Source: a bacterium
Lineage (GTDB): Bacteria; Patescibacteriota; Minisyncoccia; Phycocordibacterales; CAIZLB01
Assembly (NCBI GenBank): GCA_043718245.1
Contig: JAYSWB010000054.1
Coordinates: 1 to 34,236, forward strand
Direction of reading: 5' to 3'
Length of the DNA: 34,236 bases
In this document: positions 4,988 through 23,517 of the stretch, one piece after another
How positions within the stretch are numbered: position 1 is the first letter of the stretch
Layout of the letters: each line of letters starts with the position of its first letter
Position numbers and translations under genes: made by a program
Notes under the pieces: generated by a model
Told to the model about the DNA's origin: nothing
Database searches by the model: none
Seen by the model: only the letters and a program-made list of their open reading frames with translations

Positions 4988-5896
4988 ATGGCAAACCGGC
5001 ATTTATCACGTTCAATAGCAATGCAGTCACTCTTCGAATGGGATTTCCGTTCGATGCCGGACTTGTCCATGGATGAGGTTATTTCTCGAAACACCGAAGA
5101 GTTCGCACCAGGCGTCAGCGACACTAGTTTTACTAAAAAAATTGTTGATGGGGTTCTCACTAAAAAAACCGACATAGATTCTATAATTGAAAAAGCAGCA
5201 CCAGAATGGCCAGTGGCCAAAATTGCAATTGTAGACAGAAATGTTCTACGTGTTGGTCTATACGAATTACTTTTCGCAGACAAAAAAGAAGTTCCGGCCA
5301 AAGTCGCCATCAACGAAGCGATTGAACTTGCAAAAACTTTTGGGGGAGAAACCTCAGGAAAATTTGTAAACGGAGTTTTGGGTGCAGTCTACAAAGAAAT
5401 GGGCGAGCCAGGAAAGGACGAAGTTTCTCCACGAAAGATCCGCGAAGCAAAAATGAATATTCCGTTTGAACAGATGCCGATTAAGGTTTTGGGCGGTGCA
5501 GTAGTTTACGCGAAACATGAAGGTGAAGTTTATTTGGCACTTGTGCACGATGTTTTCGGGCATTGGACTTTGTCTAAAGGAAAGCTGGAACCAGGAGAAG
5601 ATGTGCAGGCTGGTACGATTCGTGAAATAAAAGAAGAGATGAATGTTGACATTACTATCGAAGAAGAGCTCGCAAAAAACGAATATGTCGCATCGCACCC
5701 AGAAGAAGGCAAGATCAGAAAACAAGTAACCTATTTCTTGGCCTCTGGACCTTATCAGGATTTGAAACTCGGCGACAGTGGAGGGCTCGACGATGCCAAA
5801 TGGTTCAAACTGCAGGAAATTTTGACCCTAAATTTTTATAGTGATATTCTTCCGATCGTGACAAAGGCCATTCAAATTCTCTTGAAAAAAGGCTAA
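4988..5896 (+). CDS. nusB: transcription antitermination factor NusB fused to a C-terminal NUDIX hydrolase domain
   Basis: N-half has DRNVLR, VAINEAIELAKTFG, FVNGVLG; C-half has Nudix box KGKLEPGE...REIKEEMNV. Confidence 0.93.
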   Translation: MANRHLSRSIAMQSLFEWDFRSMPDLSMDEVISRNTEEFAPGVSDTSFTKKIVDGVLTKKTDIDSIIEKAAPEWPVAKIAIVDRNVLRVGLYELLFADKKEVPAKVAINEAIELAKTFGGETSGKFVNGVLGAVYKEMGEPGKDEVSPRKIREAKMNIPFEQMPIKVLGGAVVYAKHEGEVYLALVHDVFGHWTLSKGKLEPGEDVQAGTIREIKEEMNVDITIEEELAKNEYVASHPEEGKIRKQVTYFLASGPYQDLKLGDSGGLDDAKWFKLQEILTLNFYSDILPIVTKAIQILLKKG

Positions 5897-16233: not shown

Positions 16234-16599
16234 ATGAATTCATCATACACCTCATCAAGTACCAAGCCTCTTTATCGAGGAACTCAAATAGTTTGGTATA
16301 TTCTCGGTATTATAGAGGCCCTACTAGCGTTTCGATTTATTCTAAAGCTCCTTGGGGCAAATCCAGGAGCTGGCTTCACCAATTTTATTTACGGAATCAC
16401 CTATGTCTTTGCTAATCCATTTTTGTCGGTTTTTCGAAGTACCGAGATCGTTTCAGGTAGCATTTTCGAATGGACTTCACTTCTCGCGATGGTTGTATAT
16501 TGGATTGTGGCAATGGGTATAATCAATTTATTCTTTATGGGAAAGACAGTTTCAACACCTGAAGCAGCTGCCAAGATGGAAGTTGAAGAGAAGAGATAG
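16234..16599 (+). CDS. YggT-family membrane protein
   Basis: RFILKLLGANP...FIYGIT...PF...LLAMVVY pattern. Confidence 0.8.
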   Translation: MNSSYTSSSTKPLYRGTQIVWYILGIIEALLAFRFILKLLGANPGAGFTNFIYGITYVFANPFLSVFRSTEIVSGSIFEWTSLLAMVVYWIVAMGIINLFFMGKTVSTPEAAAKMEVEEKR

Positions 16600-17067
16600 T
16601 TAAAACTCGATTTTACCTTTAGGTGAAAATAATTCCACTGAACTGATGGTGGGGTATTGAGTGAGGGTGTCATTGAGGACGGCCATTAGGTGTCCGCTCT
16701 CGCAACTGCTAAGCGCACTGAGGGGTTTTCCTTTAGGGTCCATGTCGCTTTCAAGTGTTACTTTGGCGACACTATTTGTAATAGTAACTGATTTGTAAAC
16801 TCCATATCGAGCAAGTTCTTCATTGAAAAGTATTTTTAAAGATGCATCTGCAACGGCGGTTGTTTTTGGGACTTTGTATGTCACAGGGTAGGTAACTCTA
16901 CAGTCGCTTGTTTTCGCGACTTCTTTATTCTGGATGTACAAAGTTAGGACTGTTTGGTCTTTTGATGTCGCGGGGGGTGTTACTTTTGGTTTTGACTGAG
17001 AGGTGGTAAAGATTACTAATAAGATAGTAATGATGAATATGATGAGGGCGATGTTTAGTTTTTTCAT
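16600..17067 (-). CDS. secreted/anchored protein with probable GerMN-like domain
   Basis: N-terminal TM helix; TTAVADASLKILF and SSC...TLTQYPTISSV resemble GerMN. Confidence 0.6.
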   Translation of the reverse strand: MKKLNIALIIFIITILLVIFTTSQSKPKVTPPATSKDQTVLTLYIQNKEVAKTSDCRVTYPVTYKVPKTTAVADASLKILFNEELARYGVYKSVTITNSVAKVTLESDMDPKGKPLSALSSCESGHLMAVLNDTLTQYPTISSVELFSPKGKIEF

Positions 17068-17116
17068 ATGTGAAGTATAGCAAAGTATGAATTTTCAATC
17101 ATGTTATAATGACACC

Positions 17117-17485
17117 ATGAAAACAGCCACTCGTCTGAATCCACCTTTGTGGGAAGCCTGTAAAAAAGAAGCGGTATATAAAATGGGAAAGTTCTCTGCC
17201 CGCGCTATGCAGTACGCGGTTACTTTGTATAAAAAAAGAGGAGGGAAATATTCAGGGGTGAAAAGTCCAAAGAATAGTCTGACACTTTGGACCAAGGAAG
17301 ACTGGGGATATACAGGTGAAGAAAAGCGTAGTAGGTATTTGCCAAAGAAGGCTAGGGAGAGTTTAACGAGGGGAGAGAAAATTGCCACAGACAGGGCAAA
17401 GAATGCAGGGACGAGGGCGAATAAACAGTGGGTTCCGCAACCGAAAAAGATTGCGAAAAAGACGGCGAAATTTAGGTTGAAGTAG
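17117..17485 (+). CDS. basic hypothetical protein, DUF5872-like (virus-associated family, from recall)
   Basis: SARAMQ...YKKRGGKY, W-x3-DW, RYLPKKA, KQWVPQPKKIA; TGtTATAAT 6 nt before ATG 17117. Confidence 0.7.
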   Translation: MKTATRLNPPLWEACKKEAVYKMGKFSARAMQYAVTLYKKRGGKYSGVKSPKNSLTLWTKEDWGYTGEEKRSRYLPKKARESLTRGEKIATDRAKNAGTRANKQWVPQPKKIAKKTAKFRLK

Positions 17486-17486
17486 C

Positions 17487-17508
17487 GGTGAGCCCAGTAT
17501 GCCTCGAA
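17487..17508 (+). repeat. left attachment junction, degenerate copy of the tRNA-Glu 3' end
   Basis: ggtgagcccagtatgcctcgaa vs ggtgaccccacagagaatcgaa at 22267-22288, ungapped, with both end blocks conserved. Confidence 0.72.
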
Positions 17509-17604
17509 TGGAACACCATGGAAAACTATGTGTTGAACTGGAAACAAGCAATGCAAACGATTGATCCTTCATATTTAATACTTAAGACGAGCTATGTATC
17601 ATAG
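17488..17604 (+). other. orphan in-frame C-terminal tail of the serine recombinase, joined to it only in the excised circle
   Basis: Open frame VSPVCLEWNTMENYVLNWKQAMQTIDPSYLILKTSYVS* starts at the GTG of the att core, in phase with recombinase codon V553 (22268-22270). Confidence 0.65.
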
Positions 17605-17719
17605 GATATTTACAACAAAGAGGTGTGATAGAAGATACCTCAGAGTGTATGGAACAGTAGTTAGTATGAGTATATCGAGCGAAATTAAATCTGCTGAACC
17701 AGTGCAGTAAATCAAAACT

Positions 17720-18193
17720 ATGAATAACATCACACTTACCAAATCAGGTCCTGAGTCACTTCTTACAGAAGATTTGTCCTTACGAATAAGGACTCTCCTT
17801 TTACAAGGCAAGAAGATCAAAGAAATCCAGAAATGGTGCGGTATTAAACCTGGCACATGGGATAAGTGGTATTTTGAGAACCATAAGGATTTCAGGCAGA
17901 AAATTACTAATTGGAGGAAGGAACGTTTTCTCCAAAAATCCATTTCTAACATTGAAGAAATGCTTGAAATGGAAACAAGTCACGAAGTAAGACAAGGAGA
18001 ATACTCGGCTCGTATTACTGATCCGAGGCTCCTTAAAATCAAGCTGGAAGCCTCTAAGTTCGTATTAGAGAATTTCAAATCTGAAAAGGATAAACAAGCT
18101 ACCGAGCTTTCTGCTGACCGAATGAGGCGAGTTTTGGAGATATTTGAGATGAATAGGAGAGGTGTCTATACTCAAGACACCTTGAAGGAATAG
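17720..18193 (+). CDS. HTH protein, terminase small subunit-like
   Basis: N-terminal HTH (IKEIQKWCGIKPGTWDKW) followed by a helical region; 157 aa; inside the element. Confidence 0.5.
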   Translation: MNNITLTKSGPESLLTEDLSLRIRTLLLQGKKIKEIQKWCGIKPGTWDKWYFENHKDFRQKITNWRKERFLQKSISNIEEMLEMETSHEVRQGEYSARITDPRLLKIKLEASKFVLENFKSEKDKQATELSADRMRRVLEIFEMNRRGVYTQDTLKE

Positions 18194-18194
18194 T

Positions 18195-18740
18195 TTATGA
18201 ATTTCTTATTTCAGAAATCTTTGAATACAGATTTTGTGCATTCTCAATTGAGTAAAATGCTGTTGGCATATTATAGAAATTTCTCATCATAGGCCATCCA
18301 GGAATGTAAAAGTTTATAACTCCTTTTGAACCAAAAATAATGTCTCCTTTCCCTGAAGATTTAACATTAAGCTGTATGTCACCTAATTTTTTAAGGTCAA
18401 CAGATTTAAGTTCAATGCTTGATACGCCTTGTTGAACAAGAGCTCTTTTGTCTGTCAAAACATAATAAAGATTATTATATTCTTTATTTGCAACAAAAAA
18501 TCTACCAATGGTAATATATAGACCCATTAGGACGAAAAAACCTCCGAAGATAAGAAAGAAAAAGGGCGCACCACTTACCCATGCAGTAAATTCCCAAAAC
18601 AAAGCAAATGCAAACCAGACAAATGTAAAAGGTATGATAAACCAAGACGGTCCTTGAAATAAGAAAGATTTTTTATCAGGTTTTCCCTCCCAAATTACCT
18701 TTTCATCTGGTAATAGTTGGCTCTTAATAAATTCCGTCAT
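18195..18740 (-). CDS. membrane protein with bacterial PH-like domain
   Basis: LLPDEKVIWEGKP, two TM helices, YVLTDKRAL...GDIIF pattern. Confidence 0.75.
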   Translation of the reverse strand: MTEFIKSQLLPDEKVIWEGKPDKKSFLFQGPSWFIIPFTFVWFAFALFWEFTAWVSGAPFFFLIFGGFFVLMGLYITIGRFFVANKEYNNLYYVLTDKRALVQQGVSSIELKSVDLKKLGDIQLNVKSSGKGDIIFGSKGVINFYIPGWPMMRNFYNMPTAFYSIENAQNLYSKISEIRNS

Positions 18741-18742
18741 GT

Positions 18743-19276
18743 TTATTTATTAGGGAAAATATCATCATCAGTTCCGTATTCTCCATCAGGCCCTAGGCTT
18801 CTTAGGTCATAGCTTGAAGCATCCTTAGAAACTTCATAATGAAATGGCTTCATATAATGATCGCTAGGCCATACTTGGTAACCCGCATCTTTGAGTTCAG
18901 CTAGGGATTGAGGATATTTACCTGTTTTTGTCTTGTAGAGCTCAAGTAAGCCTGCATCTTGTGTAAACAATTGAGCACTCAATTCTTTTTTAGGTTGTTC
19001 AAATGGGCCACCTTTTGCGACAAAACCAAAATAGAATAGAGAGCCATACAGAGATACAGTCACAATTATTCCCAAAATACCTAAGATAATTCCTGCGGTA
19101 GAAAACCCCTTACCAGAATAAAGTCCCTTCTTAATTTTTGACTTTGCCACTATTCCAAAAATTATTGCTAACAAACCAAGCAAAAGCCCTACTAAAGGTA
19201 TGAATGAGGTAATTCCCAATACTAAACTTGCTGTGGCTAATCCTGACTTTGGTAGGTTTGTTGATTGTGGCTCCAT
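18743..19276 (-). CDS. DUF4190 membrane domain fused to a T2SS GspG-like C-terminal domain
   Basis: SGLATASLVLGI...G-x-G-x3-AGIILG, then LELYK...GKYP and YDLRSLGPDGEYGTDDDI; likely start 19276. Confidence 0.78.
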   Translation of the reverse strand: MEPQSTNLPKSGLATASLVLGITSFIPLVGLLLGLLAIIFGIVAKSKIKKGLYSGKGFSTAGIILGILGIIVTVSLYGSLFYFGFVAKGGPFEQPKKELSAQLFTQDAGLLELYKTKTGKYPQSLAELKDAGYQVWPSDHYMKPFHYEVSKDASSYDLRSLGPDGEYGTDDDIFPNK

Positions 19277-19434
19277 TTTGATGGCGTTATTAATATGTTC
19301 AGTAGTATGACACAATATGTAAAAAAATGCATGCTGAGCTAACTACATATGGATTACTGCACTAGTGCACCAGATTTTATTGTTAATTTCCTTTAATTTA
19401 CATATGATAACTATGCACTCATGGTATATAAATC

Positions 19435-19848
19435 TTGAACGCCTCTATGTTAAATCCATCCCAATTTTCACCTCATAAACTTAAAGAAATACAACAAGTT
19501 TTGAATGCTGTTTTGGACCACTTTTCTACTGCTAATGTATCTCAGAAGTTCAATAAAATATCTATATCTAACCTTAATGGAGTGTCCGAAGTGGAGGCTA
19601 CAAATGTCCTCAAGGAAATTAAAGGCGTTAGTGTTTTGAATGAATTTTACAAGAAGAAATTCGCTGGTATAGAGCTTGTATCTCCCAACCCAGAGAAATG
19701 GATTAAGCGAGAGATGGATGAAAATGGACTTGAAAAGACCGATCTCGGTAACTACCTATTTGTAAAAGTAGAAAATCAGGCGGTGCTTGATGAAATTAAA
19801 AACACCCTAAAAGGAGTTGATGAAATTTTAGGAGCCAAGATGATGTGA
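19435..19848 (+). CDS. hypothetical protein (start may be ATG 19447)
   Basis: 137-codon ORF in AT-rich element DNA, no recognisable motif. Confidence 0.6.
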   Translation: MNASMLNPSQFSPHKLKEIQQVLNAVLDHFSTANVSQKFNKISISNLNGVSEVEATNVLKEIKGVSVLNEFYKKKFAGIELVSPNPEKWIKREMDENGLEKTDLGNYLFVKVENQAVLDEIKNTLKGVDEILGAKMM

Positions 19849-20153
19849 TTAAGTCAGTTTGTATAAGTAGGGATGATGGTATTCATCTCAGGAGTAATCC
19901 TATGAAAAGATATGAGGCGACGAAGAAGAGACTCGATCTCATTTTTTGCTTTTCTCAACAGACTTCATGGAGATTAGATGAGTTACAATTGGAAACAGGT
20001 TATTCCTTTGAAGGTGATACAAGTAAAGCAATAAAGAAAATAAATAGTCTTTTCAGAGAAAAAGTTGATCAATTAAATGACCTGATAATTCATACTGATT
20101 CATCAGGGTATAGACTAAACAAAGCTAAATATAATTTTGAATTTTTGGAGTAG
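19845..20153 (+). CDS. hypothetical protein, possible winged-helix DNA-binding domain
   Basis: GTG start overlaps the previous stop, AGGAG upstream; KAIKKINSLFREK...GYRLN resembles a wHTH end. Confidence 0.55.
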   Translation: MIKSVCISRDDGIHLRSNPMKRYEATKKRLDLIFCFSQQTSWRLDELQLETGYSFEGDTSKAIKKINSLFREKVDQLNDLIIHTDSSGYRLNKAKYNFEFLE

Positions 20154-20182
20154 ACCGTTACTAGGTGTTAATAACTCTTGTT

Positions 20183-20207
20183 GAAGTGCTAATTTAAGGC
20201 ACTTTTT
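20183..20207 (+). terminator. probable intrinsic terminator
   Basis: AAGTGCT-aatttaa-GGCACTT then TTT. Confidence 0.5.
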
Positions 20208-20293
20208 GCATATATGTTACCTAGCAAGCACCCAATTACGACCCGACCTATATTTGCGAGAATTGAGTAGTTGCTTATCTTGAACACAACCCA

Positions 20294-20363
20294 ATAAGCC
20301 TATTGCTTACTTGGCAGGTGCCGTAAGGCGTTCAAGAACCTGCCCAGTAAAGAGTAGGTTTAT
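20294..20363 (+). ncRNA. structured candidate antisense RNA (C4/CI-like) upstream of the recombinase operon
   Basis: Nested stems ATAAGCCTAT/GTAGGTTTAT, TTACT/AGTAA, GGCAGGT/ACCTGCC; inner GCC-GTAA-GGC hairpin; unpaired GTTCAAGA complementary to 19433-19440 and 20278-20285. Confidence 0.6.
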
Positions 20364-20390
20364 GTCCAAGATGGACAGCAACAGGCTGTC

Positions 20391-20615
20391 ATGGACTCAC
20401 TACTTAATCCCCAATCACTCATAGAACCACAAAAAGTCCCCTCTGAAGGATGTGTGTCTTTTGAGGAGTTCAAAAATACACTTGGTAAAACTGCCAATGA
20501 TTATTCAGATGATGAAATAGAAAAAATAAGAGTATTATTCGATTGCTTAGCGGAGGTAACTTTTGACAGTTGGCTCAAAAAAGTAAACAGCGGTATTATT
20601 AAAGAATTATCATGA
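20391..20615 (+). CDS. small acidic hypothetical protein translationally coupled to the recombinase
   Basis: 74 aa; stop overlaps the recombinase start (ATGA). Confidence 0.65.
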   Translation: MDSLLNPQSLIEPQKVPSEGCVSFEEFKNTLGKTANDYSDDEIEKIRVLFDCLAEVTFDSWLKKVNSGIIKELS

Positions 20616-22294
20616 TACCAAATGTTTCAAAAAACTGTGTAGTTCAATGTCGAGTAAGCTCTTTAAAACAATCTCAAGAAGGAGAAAGTTTAGAAATGCA
20701 GGAGAAATCAATGAGGGCATTCATAGCTCTGAAAGGCTGGAAAATTGTTCCAAATGATAAGGTGTGGTCAACCGCAATTTCAGGAAGAAAAACTGACCGT
20801 GCAGACTTTGAGAATATTCTTGATTTCATTAAGGCACATCCTGGACTAGTCGATTATTACATTTTTCGATCGATTGATAGGTTTACAAGAGCAGGAAGTG
20901 AAGAATACTCTCGAATGAAGCGTGAACTCTCTAAGTATGGAGTAGAGATGATTGATACTTATGGAGTCATCCAACCAACTAAGAACACATTGGCAGATTT
21001 TAATATGGAGTATGAATGGAGCAAGTATTCTCCTAGTGAGATAGCAGAGATTGTGATGGCGACTCAAGCCAAATCAGAGGTCACTAATATCCTCACACGA
21101 ATGATCGGACAAGAGATAAGTCTGACTCAGCAAGGTTACCGCACTCGAAGACCCGCAGACGGTTATGTAAATGAAAAGATTTATGTAGAAGGAAAGAAGA
21201 AAACTATTCAAGCTTCATGTCCCAACAGATCAAAATTTTATATAGCTATGTTTGAACTGCGTGCTCAAGGGTTAAGTGATCCAGAATGTGTAAGCAGATT
21301 AAATGCAATGGGATATACCTCTCCAATGCAAAACAAATGGAATAAGGATCACACTAAAATCCTTGGAAGAACAGGTGGGGCACCACTCACGGTCAAACAA
21401 TTCCAAAAGATCATGGAAAACACAATCTATGCAGGAGTGGTATGTGAGAAATGGACGCATTACAAGCCGATTAAAGCTCAATACAGCGGTTTAGTTTCGA
21501 TTGAGACATGGAACCAAGCAAATAGAGGCAAATTGGCTCTTATGAAGGATACTGAGGGCGGTCTTGAGTTAGTGAAAAGACAAAGCATCGGTAAATCACG
21601 AGAAAGATATAATCCAGAATTTGCATATAAATTTATAGGATGTCCGCTTTGTGGAAAGAAAATGCTTGGCAGTGCTTCAACTGGTAAAGGTGGAGTTCCT
21701 CGACCTGCATATCACTGTTCTCGTGGTCATGAGCGATATGGCGTAAAGAAATCAGAGTTCGAGGAGTCAGTAAGCAAATATGTTAAGAGCTTGAAATTCA
21801 AACCAGAGCTCATGGATGCTCTCGAGCTTACCTTTATGAAAAAGTATAGACAGCGTGAGAAAGAAATAGTTAAAGCATCAGGCGATATTCATCAAGCAAT
21901 TGCGAACCTTGAACTCGAACAGGCTTCTAAGCTAGAAGTTATTGAGACTACAAGGAGTGCGGTGGTGAGAGAAAAGTTTGAACAGGAAGTTGATGCTCTT
22001 GAAGCAAAAATAAAGGAAGCACGAAAAGAACGATTAAAAATTCAGATCACTAGAGACGATATTAAGTCATTTGTGCAAGAGGCAAAAAACATAATGGAAC
22101 ACCCAGCTGAAATCCTATTACAGCCAAGTAATCCAAGAGCAAAAGAGAAACTATTTGAGTTGTTCTTCGAGAAGATGCCCACCTACTCAGATATAGTTAA
22201 TGGAACACCAAAATTATCCTTGATATTCCAGCTTTCTTCAGACTTCAAACCTACTAACGAAACATTGGTGACCCCACAGAGAATCGAACTCTGA
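20612..22294 (+). CDS. large serine recombinase/integrase
   Basis: Catalytic CRVSS, SG and IDRFTR motifs, recombinase domain, zinc ribbon CPLC...YHCSRGH, coiled coil; last codons overlap tRNA-Glu on the opposite strand. Confidence 0.94.
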   Translation: MIPNVSKNCVVQCRVSSLKQSQEGESLEMQEKSMRAFIALKGWKIVPNDKVWSTAISGRKTDRADFENILDFIKAHPGLVDYYIFRSIDRFTRAGSEEYSRMKRELSKYGVEMIDTYGVIQPTKNTLADFNMEYEWSKYSPSEIAEIVMATQAKSEVTNILTRMIGQEISLTQQGYRTRRPADGYVNEKIYVEGKKKTIQASCPNRSKFYIAMFELRAQGLSDPECVSRLNAMGYTSPMQNKWNKDHTKILGRTGGAPLTVKQFQKIMENTIYAGVVCEKWTHYKPIKAQYSGLVSIETWNQANRGKLALMKDTEGGLELVKRQSIGKSRERYNPEFAYKFIGCPLCGKKMLGSASTGKGGVPRPAYHCSRGHERYGVKKSEFEESVSKYVKSLKFKPELMDALELTFMKKYRQREKEIVKASGDIHQAIANLELEQASKLEVIETTRSAVVREKFEQEVDALEAKIKEARKERLKIQITRDDIKSFVQEAKNIMEHPAEILLQPSNPRAKEKLFELFFEKMPTYSDIVNGTPKLSLIFQLSSDFKPTNETLVTPQRIEL

Positions 22295-22340
22295 TTACTG
22301 CCTTGAAAAGGCAATGTCCTAACCGTTAGACGATGGGGCC
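22266..22340 (-). tRNA. tRNA-Glu (TTC)
   Basis: GGCCCCATCGTCTAACGGTTAGGACATTGCC-TTTTCAA-GGCAGTAATCAGAGTTCGATTCTCTGTGGGGTCACCA folds as a cloverleaf with encoded CCA. Confidence 0.96.
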
Positions 22341-22428
22341 GTATTTGTCCCCAAGAATATAACATTTTTTCGTAAAAAGGCAAAAAATTACCATTTACAC
22401 TTAGTAGTATAAGGTTTACTATTCAGAT

Positions 22429-22908
22429 ATGAAAAACACCACTTTACTTTTCCTTATCAAAAAAACTGACAACAAAATTACTGATATTTGTCTCGCAATG
22501 AAAAAGCGAGGGTTTGGTGCCGGCCGTTGGAACGGGGTTGGTGGTAAGCTTTCAGAAGGTGAAACTATCGAGCAAGCTTTAATTAGAGAAACAAAAGAAG
22601 AGATTGATGTTACGGTTGGACCGATGTGGAAGGTTGCAGAGCTTGCATTTTCTTTTGCAAATAATCCTGACTGGAATCAGTTAGTTCATGTTTATACAAC
22701 AACAGAGTGGCAAGGAGATCCTGTTGAAAGTGAAGAGATGCGACCAGAGTGGTATGCCGTTAAAGACATTCCATTTAAAGACATGTGGCCTGACGATATC
22801 TTTTGGCTTCCAAAAGTCTTGGAAGGGGAATTGGTTAGGGCAGCATTTACTTTCGGTGAAAAAGATGCGATTTTAGATCAGAAAGTTGAAACCGTAGAGA
22901 GTTTATAA
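22429..22908 (+). CDS. 8-oxo-dGTP diphosphatase, MTH1/NUDT1-like Nudix hydrolase
   Basis: KKRGFGAGRWNGVGGK, Nudix box RETKEE, EEMRPEW, MWPDD. Confidence 0.9.
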   Translation: MKNTTLLFLIKKTDNKITDICLAMKKRGFGAGRWNGVGGKLSEGETIEQALIRETKEEIDVTVGPMWKVAELAFSFANNPDWNQLVHVYTTTEWQGDPVESEEMRPEWYAVKDIPFKDMWPDDIFWLPKVLEGELVRAAFTFGEKDAILDQKVETVESL

Positions 22909-22922
22909 TACTATTGTCAGGC

Positions 22923-22996
22923 GGGCGATTAGCTCAGTTGGTAGAGCGCGGGATTGACGTTCTCGAGGTTCGCAGGTTCGACCCCTGCATCGCCCA
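22923..22996 (+). tRNA. tRNA-Val (GAC)
   Basis: GGGCGATTAGCTCAGTTGGTAGAGCG-CGGGA-TTGACGT-TCTCG-AGGTTC-GCAGGTTCGACCCCTGC-ATCGCCCA; CCA not encoded. Confidence 0.95.
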
Positions 22997-23030
22997 CAAG
23001 GTAAGTCTTCAGTGCTGAAATTTGATTGTA

Positions 23031-23061
23031 TAAGAAAAGGGAGCCGCTGGCGGCTCCCTTT
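23031..23061 (-). terminator. intrinsic terminator, possibly bidirectional
   Basis: Perfect 11-bp stem AAAGGGAGCCG/CGGCTCCCTTT with a T-rich tail on the minus strand. Confidence 0.85.
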
Positions 23062-23079
23062 GATGTGGACTACTTCCTT

Positions 23080-23517
23080 TTATTTTTTCTTCTTGGTGCT
23101 TTGTTCTTCGTCGATAAGCGAGGAGGCTTTGTGTACGATTGGTTCGAGTTCACGGATGGTGAAGCCTGAAAAGCAAGTCATGAGGAACCGGAGATCCTCC
23201 ATATTCTTGCATGTTTTGAGCCATTGCCAGATGAAGGATCTCTTGGATTCACCTATGAGATCATTTCGAGCTGTTGCCCACAATATGATAAGTTCCTTAC
23301 TGTCCATGCAGAGCGTGATCCATTTAGCGAGAACTGCTTCCTGTCTTTGGCTACCACGGAAGGCTCGAGTGTATTCAGACTTTGCATCCTTTACACGGGT
23401 CATTGAATCAACATCGGGTTGTGATCTTGGGCTTTTGGCGCCGAAGGCTCGACTGACTTGGATTATGGTTAGTCCGAGAGCTGTTGCAATCTGGTTGTTC
23501 CTTGAGAACGTTTTCAT
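23080..23517 (-). CDS. hypothetical helical protein
   Basis: ATG-started 145-aa ORF with a minus-strand TTGACA-16-TACTAT promoter and a downstream terminator. Confidence 0.65.
   Translation of the reverse strand: MKTFSRNNQIATALGLTIIQVSRAFGAKSPRSQPDVDSMTRVKDAKSEYTRAFRGSQRQEAVLAKWITLCMDSKELIILWATARNDLIGESKRSFIWQWLKTCKNMEDLRFLMTCFSGFTIRELEPIVHKASSLIDEEQSTKKKK

Follow-up and report, generated by a model that had tools for sequence, protein, structure and literature searches.

A probable structured RNA leader outside Rfam in small integrative elements of Patescibacteria

Introduction

In the phages P1 and P7 the leader of a mobile-element operon contains C4, a cis-encoded antisense RNA with short unpaired guides whose complementary sites are repeated in the same transcript. 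C4 carries two guide segments (a' and b') with complementary sites up- and downstream, and its target lies over the ribosome binding site of the downstream gene. In the rep leaders of IncI-alpha and IncB plasmids (repZ/repA, leader peptide, Inc antisense RNA) a small open reading frame (ORF) precedes the rep gene, and translation is set by a pseudoknot between a hairpin loop and a distant segment. Patescibacteria (candidate phyla radiation, CPR) have tiny genomes, and to our knowledge almost nothing is known about the regulation of their mobile elements. The CI RNA of satellite P4 is described as processed from an untranslated transcript and as pairing with seqA and seqC up- and downstream of CI, which leads to premature termination (PMC4825925). 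Here we analyse a stretch of 34,236 nucleotides (contig JAYSWB010000054.1, assembly GCA_043718245.1; hereafter the window) from a patescibacterium. Positions 20264-20362, upstream of a large serine recombinase gene, are probably one copy of a conserved structured RNA leader outside Rfam.

The motif consists of a small hairpin (P1) and a long interrupted hairpin (P2); these names are used for the hairpins, and the phage is called phage P1. Fold and alignment indicated only one unpaired conserved segment, the putative guide, which lies in P2 and has two complementary sites in the same element: a proximal one in the loop of hairpin P1 and a distal one on the start codon of an upstream regulator gene. 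With C4 (RF01695) and the related c4-2, c4-a1b1 and IsrK RNAs the motif shares its location in a leader, an unpaired guide and repeated complementary sites, but it has one guide, a target on the upstream gene and a presumed intramolecular mimic 45 nt away, and their covariance models did not match it. A preliminary description of the window had proposed a C4/CI-like antisense RNA. Its core, an unpaired guide with two complementary sites in the same element, was borne out, whereas the C4-like topology was not: the motif has a single guide instead of two, and its targets are both upstream, with no target on the downstream operon. Nor could membership in the C4, c4-2 or c4-a1b1 families be upheld. 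A cmscan of 19000-20800 at E<=10 yielded no match to these families or to IsrK; it returned ten weak unrelated matches, the best of them (mir-8, 22.7 bits) on the hairpin. At gathering score, 14 homologous loci matched only the LOOT RNA and no C4 family. No family of Rfam 15 matched the motif, and no description of it turned up in our literature searches, in which the published accounts of LOOT and c4-a1b1 did not figure.

The P4 CI RNA is similar in that an untranslated leader precedes replication genes, a segment pairs with two sites of the same element and control is exerted in the integrated state. It differs in that both sites of the present motif lie upstream, one of them on the start codon of a protein-coding regulator gene, in that no processing signal is known here and no Rfam match was found at E<=10, and in that the hosts are Patescibacteria and not Enterobacteria. 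Because the target lies on a start codon, the expected effect would be on translation and not on termination as in P4 CI. The IncI-alpha and IncB leaders share the loop-distant pseudoknot and the small ORF, but in our motif no counter-transcript is evident, the partner sits in the internal loop of a second hairpin, and there is an extra target on another gene. By analogy we lean somewhat towards a motif that works like C4 of phage P1 and CI of P4 without being a member of the C4 family.

Results

Structure and complementarities in the window

P2 spans positions 20294 to 20363 on the + strand. Its fold has a minimum free energy (MFE) of -33.4 kcal/mol (z = -6.20), and none of 200 shuffled sequences was equally stable; the covariance model described below scored 98.4 bits on 20264-20362. 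Within P2 an inner hairpin, GCC-GUAA-GGC, occupies 20320-20329 and leaves GUUCAAGA at 20330-20337 unpaired; the guide segment is (A)GGCGTTCAAGA at 20326-20337. Hairpin P1 (20273..20299, + strand) is formed by GCTTAT (20273-78) and ATAAGC (20294-99), and its loop carries the proximal site TCTTGAAC at 20278-20285, which is complementary to the unpaired GGCGTTCAAGA of P2. In the window as well as in several relatives the two folds compete, because the 3' strand of P1 serves at the same time as the 5' base of P2. The preliminary description had given the interrupted stem, its inner hairpin, the unpaired segment and the competing hairpin exactly as found here. It had also named a GNRA hairpin, which is present in the window but not conserved, as the inner loop reads GUUU, UCAC, UUAAC and others in homologues. 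A likeness of GUUCAAG to a tRNA T-loop was considered and rejected by eye, since the flanking T-stem is missing. A second, lower-depth contig from the sample matched the window at >=90% over 20314-20524, which includes P2 and the start of the small ORF, and diverged at 20524; it may come from a related element in the same community.

The distal target TCTTGAACGCCT at 19433-19444 (+ strand) matches AGGCGTTCAAGA at 20326-20337 as an exact complement over 12 nt and includes the TTG start codon at 19435; this complementarity, too, had been described correctly, and it is listed among the inverted pairs of the region. Within the window alone such a match has a considerable background, with 17 inverted pairs of at least 12 nt in 8 kb, four of them perfect, and a complement of 8 nt is trivial. 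The exact 11-mer of the distal site has no other copy in the 711-kb genome, and the 12-mer is the only complement of at least 10 nt to the P2 loop in the whole window. Together with the recurrence and covariation of the site in homologues (see below), this argues against chance. The predicted duplex of the guide was stronger with the distal (-23.4 kcal/mol) than with the proximal site (-11.3 kcal/mol). No complement of at least 8 nt was found downstream inside the element, the nearest downstream 8-mers being more than 4 kb away. Across the genome, possible trans targets with at most one mismatch were no commoner than for a reversed control pattern.

Occurrence of the motif

We collected at least 21 instances of the motif from Patescibacteria-type genomes, of which about 700 were sampled, and from metagenomes (loci, genomes and contigs are given below by our handles L, G and C). 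A blastn search of 50 genomes of the family revealed one clear relative of the hairpin, in G013, and another copy was found upstream of the closest recombinase relative (L024, 58% identity). From these two and the window copy a search pattern was derived and run on one genome per species. It matched 67 stretches, among which seven were true instances with the whole architecture and a fold of -27.8 kcal/mol or lower, the next best stretch reaching -23.5 kcal/mol. In metagenomes the same pattern gave at least ten further instances among the 118 matches listed, two of them identical in the motif. The relatives belong to Candidatus Taylorbacteria, Saccharibacteria, Parcubacteria and Patescibacteria group genomes.

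With a covariance model derived from 17 sequences we detected the motif in 3 of 151 genomes at order level and in 2 of 50 at family level, the window's genome being counted each time, and in none of the four other genomes of the genus. Such a patchy distribution is expected for a mobile element. The window's own genome holds three copies, on contigs C50 (the window, 98 bits), C22 (45 bits; L335, G000:C22:19293-19383) and C37 (33 bits; L339, G000:C37:26830-26912), and their loops differ: GGCGUUCAAGA in the window and GGCGUUCGGG and AGCGUUCAGG in the others. One of the elements around L335 and L339 is of the tyrosine-integrase type and the other of the primase-polymerase type; the guide of L339 is placed in the terminal loop of P2. 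A blastn search of 50,697 phage records gave no match to the motif. In viral contigs the loose pattern gave no true instance in the 80 loci fetched, among the 118 matches listed, and none of 18 matches to the strict pattern passed the covariance model.

Covariation

The long hairpin and its pairing with the P1 loop are backed by covariation. This was assessed on 20 sequences aligned with the covariance model, the loop-loop pairing being added by hand, outside the model. Paired cells amounted to 94.2%, as compared with 30-52% after sliding the 3' partners by one to three columns, and 16 pairs had changed on both sides, a number that none of 500 shuffles reached. Of the 22 pairs in the P2 stem, 12 showed changes on both sides (95.2% of cells paired). 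The loop-loop helix between the P1 loop and the guide showed compensatory changes in 4 of 11 pairs with 92% of cells paired, and the proximal site was present in all 20 aligned instances. Compensatory forms of this helix are UCUCGAACGCC/GGCGUUCGAGA in L065, CCUGAACGCC/GGCGUUCAGG in L294, CUGAACACC/GGUGUUCAG in L039 and UUUUUGAACGC/GCGUUCAAAAA in L334. G087, a match obtained independently of the pattern, has the stem UUUUC/GAAAA and the loop-loop pair UUUUUGAACGC/GCGUUCAAAAA, with changes in columns that the pattern had fixed. An earlier MAFFT alignment of 17 sequences gave 93.6% paired cells and nine both-side changes, reached by 2 of 500 shuffles. Read on the gene-sense strand, the P2 stem contains 44 G-U against 14 A-C cells, 19 of the former from one conserved U-G pair; this excess points to a folded molecule of the sense strand.

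Directly 5' of P1, nine loci (L035, L032, L047, L231, L322, L330, L092, L268 and L271) carry a short hairpin, for example AGGCU-N5-AGCCU, followed by UAUUUUUAUUUGGCU. This could belong to the upstream gene as its terminator or else be an additional component of the motif, and the GGCU of the short hairpin is able to pair with AGCC at the base of P2.

The distal site in relatives

The five elements with a regulator-type gene upstream carry the distal site on its UUG or AUG start codon, with the consensus (A/U)UG-AAC-(G/A)C(C/U). The site reads UCUUGAACGCCU in the window (complementary over 12 nt), UCUUGAACGCU in L259 (11 nt), (A)UGAACACC in L039 (8 nt), (A)UGAACGCC in L266 (8 nt) and (A)UGAACGC in L339 (7 nt). 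By our own arithmetic, chance would give about 0.03 sites of at least 11 nt in the 24.9 kb searched. Guide and site changed in concert in two cases: L259 has the loop AGC and the site GCU where the window has GGC and GCC, and L039 has the loop GGU with ACC in both sites. The joint change of guide and target that the preliminary description had named as a check was found for the proximal site, in 4 of 11 pairs; for the distal site the check came out positive in these five elements.

The upstream regulator gene

The order on the + strand is ORF137, ORF102, a 240-nt intergenic stretch containing the motif, ORF74 and the 560-aa large serine recombinase. ORF137 (19435..19848, +) aligned with residues 1-136 of a single 239-aa ORF in L259 (40% identity, E 7e-35) and ORF102 (19845..20153, +) with residues 143-238 of the same ORF (56% identity, E 9e-35). 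The supposed upstream gene pair is therefore, as far as these alignments indicate, a single gene split in two, with the halves in different frames and overlapping by a GTGA stop/start. The split could be a frameshift mutation or could represent two translationally coupled cistrons. Contigs from the sample, which are possibly the source data, showed no difference at the split. ORF137 had no Pfam or PHROG family. The structure model of ORF102 (predicted local distance difference test, pLDDT, 93.4) has an N-terminal sheet, three helices and a C-terminal hairpin wing in this order, and its top Foldseek matches were the DNA-binding domains of AdeR (template modelling score, TM, 0.67-0.70), CadC, PhoB and ToxR at weak E-values of 0.004-0.1. 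On this model ORF102 is predicted to be a winged-helix DNA-binding domain of the OmpR/PhoB type, to which nearly all of the top matches belong; it had no Pfam match, and a profile search of PDB sequences yielded no member of that type. In 401 genomes of the phylum a profile search found four usable distant homologues of the winged helix-turn-helix domain and two weaker matches to other parts of the profile. The four had no covariance-model match nearby, and their intergenic regions look different. Single-protein scans of genome and viral contigs with the regulator found no relatives. A promoter-like TTGTTA-17-TATGAT, a weak consensus match, lies upstream of the gene at 19380..19408 (+); as the region has five sites of this kind where 5.3 would be expected from shuffles, it is no evidence by itself. 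After the gene, a terminator-like hairpin AAGTGC...GCACTT followed by TTTTT was seen from fold and sequence at 20184..20208 (+) and was not listed by the consensus scan.

The downstream operon and its relatives

In 17 of 21 instances the distance from P2 to the start of an ATG-initiated ORF of at least 45 aa is 3-13 nt; the window (+31), L271 (+26) and L039 (+58) deviate from this, and L084 has no such ORF. In most of the 17 it is a small ORF, and in L047 and L333 a helix-turn-helix gene. The window's small ORF, ORF74 (20391..20615, +; start 31 nt after P2), belongs to a family of 56-77 aa proteins, as judged by eye from translations, and had no Pfam or PHROG family. The small ORF is followed by a gpII-type replication protein, a primase-polymerase (PHROG matches to 1e-24), a protein of unknown function or a helix-turn-helix protein, and next in line is a serine or tyrosine recombinase. 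A 402-aa ORF is found downstream in L092, L268 and L266, of which only that of L092 matched Pfam Phage_CRI (gpII type, 1.6e-10).

In the closed genome of L367 (G134:C1:563000-582000) the motif is followed by a helix-turn-helix/tyrosine-integrase pair and a large serine recombinase, and upstream lies a copper-resistance island with two P-type ATPases, a CsoR-type repressor, DsbD_2-HMA and a cupredoxin. LOOT RNA (RF03000) was found in L259 (3505-3618, +, 72.4 bits) and L065 (1031-1154, -, 67.3 bits) and, occurring in two related serine-recombinase elements, belongs to the same kind of element. It is an RNA distinct from the motif, encoded on the other strand and located upstream of it at a distance of several hundred nt to about 1.4 kb. 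In the window LOOT had no match at E<=1 in 16500-19500 and none at gathering score over the whole length. In two more distant recombinase relatives, L026 (3890-3970) and L027 (2985-3065), the small ORF comes first and a different hairpin lies directly before the recombinase gene. This hairpin, which was not assigned to the motif, contains GTTCAAGG and shows a compensatory change between the two loci (TCGC/GCGA versus TCAC/GTGA).

The integrative element and its setting

The recombinase of 560 aa (20612..22294, +) matched Pfam PF00239 Resolvase (9e-12) and PF07508 Recombinase (3.9e-06), in agreement with the recombinase operon proposed in the preliminary description; no zinc-ribbon domain was detected in it at E<=0.01. 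The last 29 nt of its gene overlap a tRNA-Glu (UUC) on the other strand (22266..22340, -), which forms the right border of the inserted element. Its relatives share 41-58% identity, and those in L026 (5600-5740), L027 (4700-4840) and L028 (990-1130), at 41-54% identity, likewise end inside an opposite-strand tRNA-Glu(UUC), the overlap being 23-41 nt across the four loci. The tRNA copies beside the recombinase encode CCA, and the empty sites in the same genus do not. On the left, homology to genomes of the genus without the element ends near 16986; on the right it begins again at 22254-22268, which is the tRNA-Glu 3' end. The recombinase family thus appears to use the tRNA-Glu 3' end as its insertion point, with an attachment site that seems to be contained in the 3' end of the recombinase gene itself.

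At the left border no repeat and no match to the empty-site flanks were found. If the pilin-like gene at 18743-19315 belongs to the host, the element measures about 2.9 kb and comprises the split regulator, the motif, the small ORF and the recombinase. The region 16600-22265, from a yggT-like gene to the tRNA-Glu, is a variable island in the genus with unrelated genes, 5.6 kb long in the window, about 3.2 kb in G032 and about 9.8 kb in G031. Three DNA contig sets of the sample, possibly the source data, showed no joints over 17500-23500 and hence no sign of an excised circle or empty site.

The genome to which the window belongs (711 kb in 63 contigs) is 93% complete. Housekeeping genes in the window are typical for a small genome and include DnaE, LeuRS, FtsZ/FtsA and a NusB-NUDIX fusion, a single ORF at 4988-5896 in which NusB is joined to a NUDIX hydrolase domain. 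The regions upstream of 22 genes in the window are mostly A/U-rich and show no recognisable Shine-Dalgarno sequence. At gathering score Rfam matched two tRNAs in the whole window and nothing else.

Discussion

The motif is probably an RNA switch of an uncatalogued kind. We infer that the molecule is an RNA from the strand-specific G-U pairs of P2, the location of both partners in loops and the distal site on start codons; what we say about action in cis or in trans and about the direction of regulation is reasoned from the sequence in the same way. Sequence comparison tips us, by a modest preference, towards a leader RNA that uses its loop as an antisense guide against the regulator start, with the proximal site as an internal mimic. 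The leader would separate the regulator gene from the operon of small ORF and recombinase in a small integrative element, here inserted at the tRNA-Glu 3' end. As P2 ends just before the next start codon and the genes mostly lack a Shine-Dalgarno sequence, P2 would cover the ribosome landing region, and a stable hairpin immediately 5' of the start codon would hinder ribosome loading. The unpaired GGCGUUCAAGA of P2 would be the antisense guide with two partners. One is UCUUGAAC in the P1 loop, 45 nt upstream, with which it would form a loop-loop pseudoknot; the other is the same sequence over the UUG start of the winged-helix regulator gene, 0.9 kb upstream on the same strand, where pairing with the start codon would block translation of the regulator. 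The P1 site would be a built-in mimic that competes for the guide, while P1 would also compete with the base of P2. The RNA might in this way couple synthesis of the regulator to expression of the recombinase genes, and in relatives also of the replication genes, and the coupling would act as a switch between maintenance and excision or replication. Immunity or excision control, as put forward in the preliminary description, may be its function.

Several observations weigh against this antisense mechanism. The distal site was found at the start codon in only 4 of the 20 aligned instances and is absent upstream in most, so that the antisense step on the regulator is at most an add-on of one subgroup. 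The 8- and 7-nt distal matches are singly not significant; three more 8-mers occur inside ORFs, where about three are expected by chance in the 24.9 kb (again our own arithmetic), and the five start regions are probably homologous and thus not fully independent. The window copy itself looks worn, with 8 of 11 nt paired at the proximal site, the regulator in two frames and the small ORF at +31. Part of the invariance in the alignment (TTGCTTACT, GTTC, AGTAAA) was imposed by the search pattern. In the loop-loop helix 7 G-U stand against 5 A-C cells without a clear G-U excess, so that this helix alone cannot separate RNA from DNA. A separate small RNA found no backing, as a consensus scan of 20154-20400 detected no promoter-like site for it, a search for RNA runs containing 19300-20800 listed none, and at least five T within 8 nt 3' of P2 were seen in only 5 of 21 instances (two T in the window). 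Since a U-run after P2 is this rare, P2 is not generally a terminator; P2 lacks the signature of a G+C-rich stem plus U-run, a consensus scan of 19200-20700 listed no terminator-like site, and the candidate role as intrinsic terminator was rejected.

The same scarcity of distal sites at start codons, in five elements only, would be expected if the motif were a leader acting solely in cis, in which P1, P2 and the pseudoknot control translation or attenuation of the downstream small ORF and recombinase and the copy at the regulator start is a relic. The universal P1-P2 pairing and the ORF start close behind P2 in most instances agree with this, and the distal and proximal sites share the flank AAAUCU, which is unpaired with the loop and fits a duplication. 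A relic would nevertheless not be expected to track the loop changes as the distal site does in L259 (GCU with AGC) and L039 (ACC with GGU), nor to pair better in the window than the proximal site, over 12 instead of 8 nt and with the stronger predicted duplex. In addition, about 17 nt around the distal site are kept between the window and L259, whose proteins are only 40% identical. We consider purely cis action rather unlikely, though an explanation to be taken seriously.

Two further explanations dispense with a regulatory RNA. The sequence TCTTGAAC(GCC), which occurs twice in direct and once in inverted orientation, could provide DNA operators for a protein encoded by the element, with the winged-helix regulator and the small ORF product as candidates, and concerted change of the copies would then mimic base-pair covariation. 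The predicted OmpR/PhoB-type fold of the upstream gene product, a site at the regulator's own start that would fit autoregulation and the missing G-U enrichment in the loop-loop helix are compatible with operators. Yet one copy always lies in the internal loop of the covarying, G-U-rich hairpin, and the other is placed in the loop of a hairpin by about 9 of the 21 MFE folds (window, L092, L047, L084, L322, L032, L268, L271 and L294; in the remaining folds the P1 stem is not distinct). The same site is moreover kept without a winged-helix gene in elements of the tyrosine-integrase, primase-polymerase and gpII-Rep types, and in L330 the pairing is kept only through a U-G wobble. Taken together, operators seem improbable. 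Finally, the hairpin adjoins a recombinase gene and might be a site of recombination or replication: an attP of the serine recombinase, a single-strand origin or a rolling-circle packaging hairpin. The Phage_CRI match in L092, one of the three loci with the 402-aa ORF, together with a resemblance to the Ff origin, had raised the candidate of a filamentous-phage origin or packaging hairpin; it fails generally, as other instances come with primase-polymerase or unknown replication genes, phage records gave no match and no true instance was seen among the viral-contig matches listed. Insertion of the family at the tRNA-Glu 3' end, inside the 3' end of the recombinase gene, means that the motif is not the attachment site of this recombinase, and attP was rejected on this ground and on that of its occurrence with unrelated recombinase families. 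The motif occurs with both serine and tyrosine recombinases and with three kinds of replication protein, and the symmetry axes of P2 and of the loop-loop pairing overlap in the manner of a pseudoknot, unlike those of a palindrome bound by protein. A recombination or replication site is accordingly a very remote prospect.

Returning to the antisense guide, a wider proposal, possible but doubtful in our view, is that the motif determines the specificity of a widespread RNA-based switch for immunity or maintenance, with which each mobile element of Patescibacteria that has it would use a guide/target pair of its own. Differing loops such as those of the three copies in the window's genome would let co-resident elements control their own regulator, replication and recombinase genes without cross-talk, and the mimic would set the threshold.

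Conclusions

Sequence comparison points to a new RNA family that is backed by covariation, is now represented by a covariance model and has a plausible antisense mechanism. The family marks the control region of small integrative elements with serine or tyrosine recombinases, varied replication proteins and, in one case, copper-resistance cargo, and the motif could serve as a practical marker for such elements in metagenomes. If the antisense reading is true, these elements would possess a compact circuit, made up of an 11-nt guide together with its mimic and its start-codon target, analogous to the immunity systems of phage P1 and P4 but of independent origin, in organisms whose translation seems to depend on the accessibility of the leader and not on Shine-Dalgarno pairing. 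Should the motif in addition determine specificity among elements, it would represent the first regulatory RNA circuit to be reported from the mobile elements of this phylum, and an example of translational control by start-codon masking in organisms largely without Shine-Dalgarno sequences.

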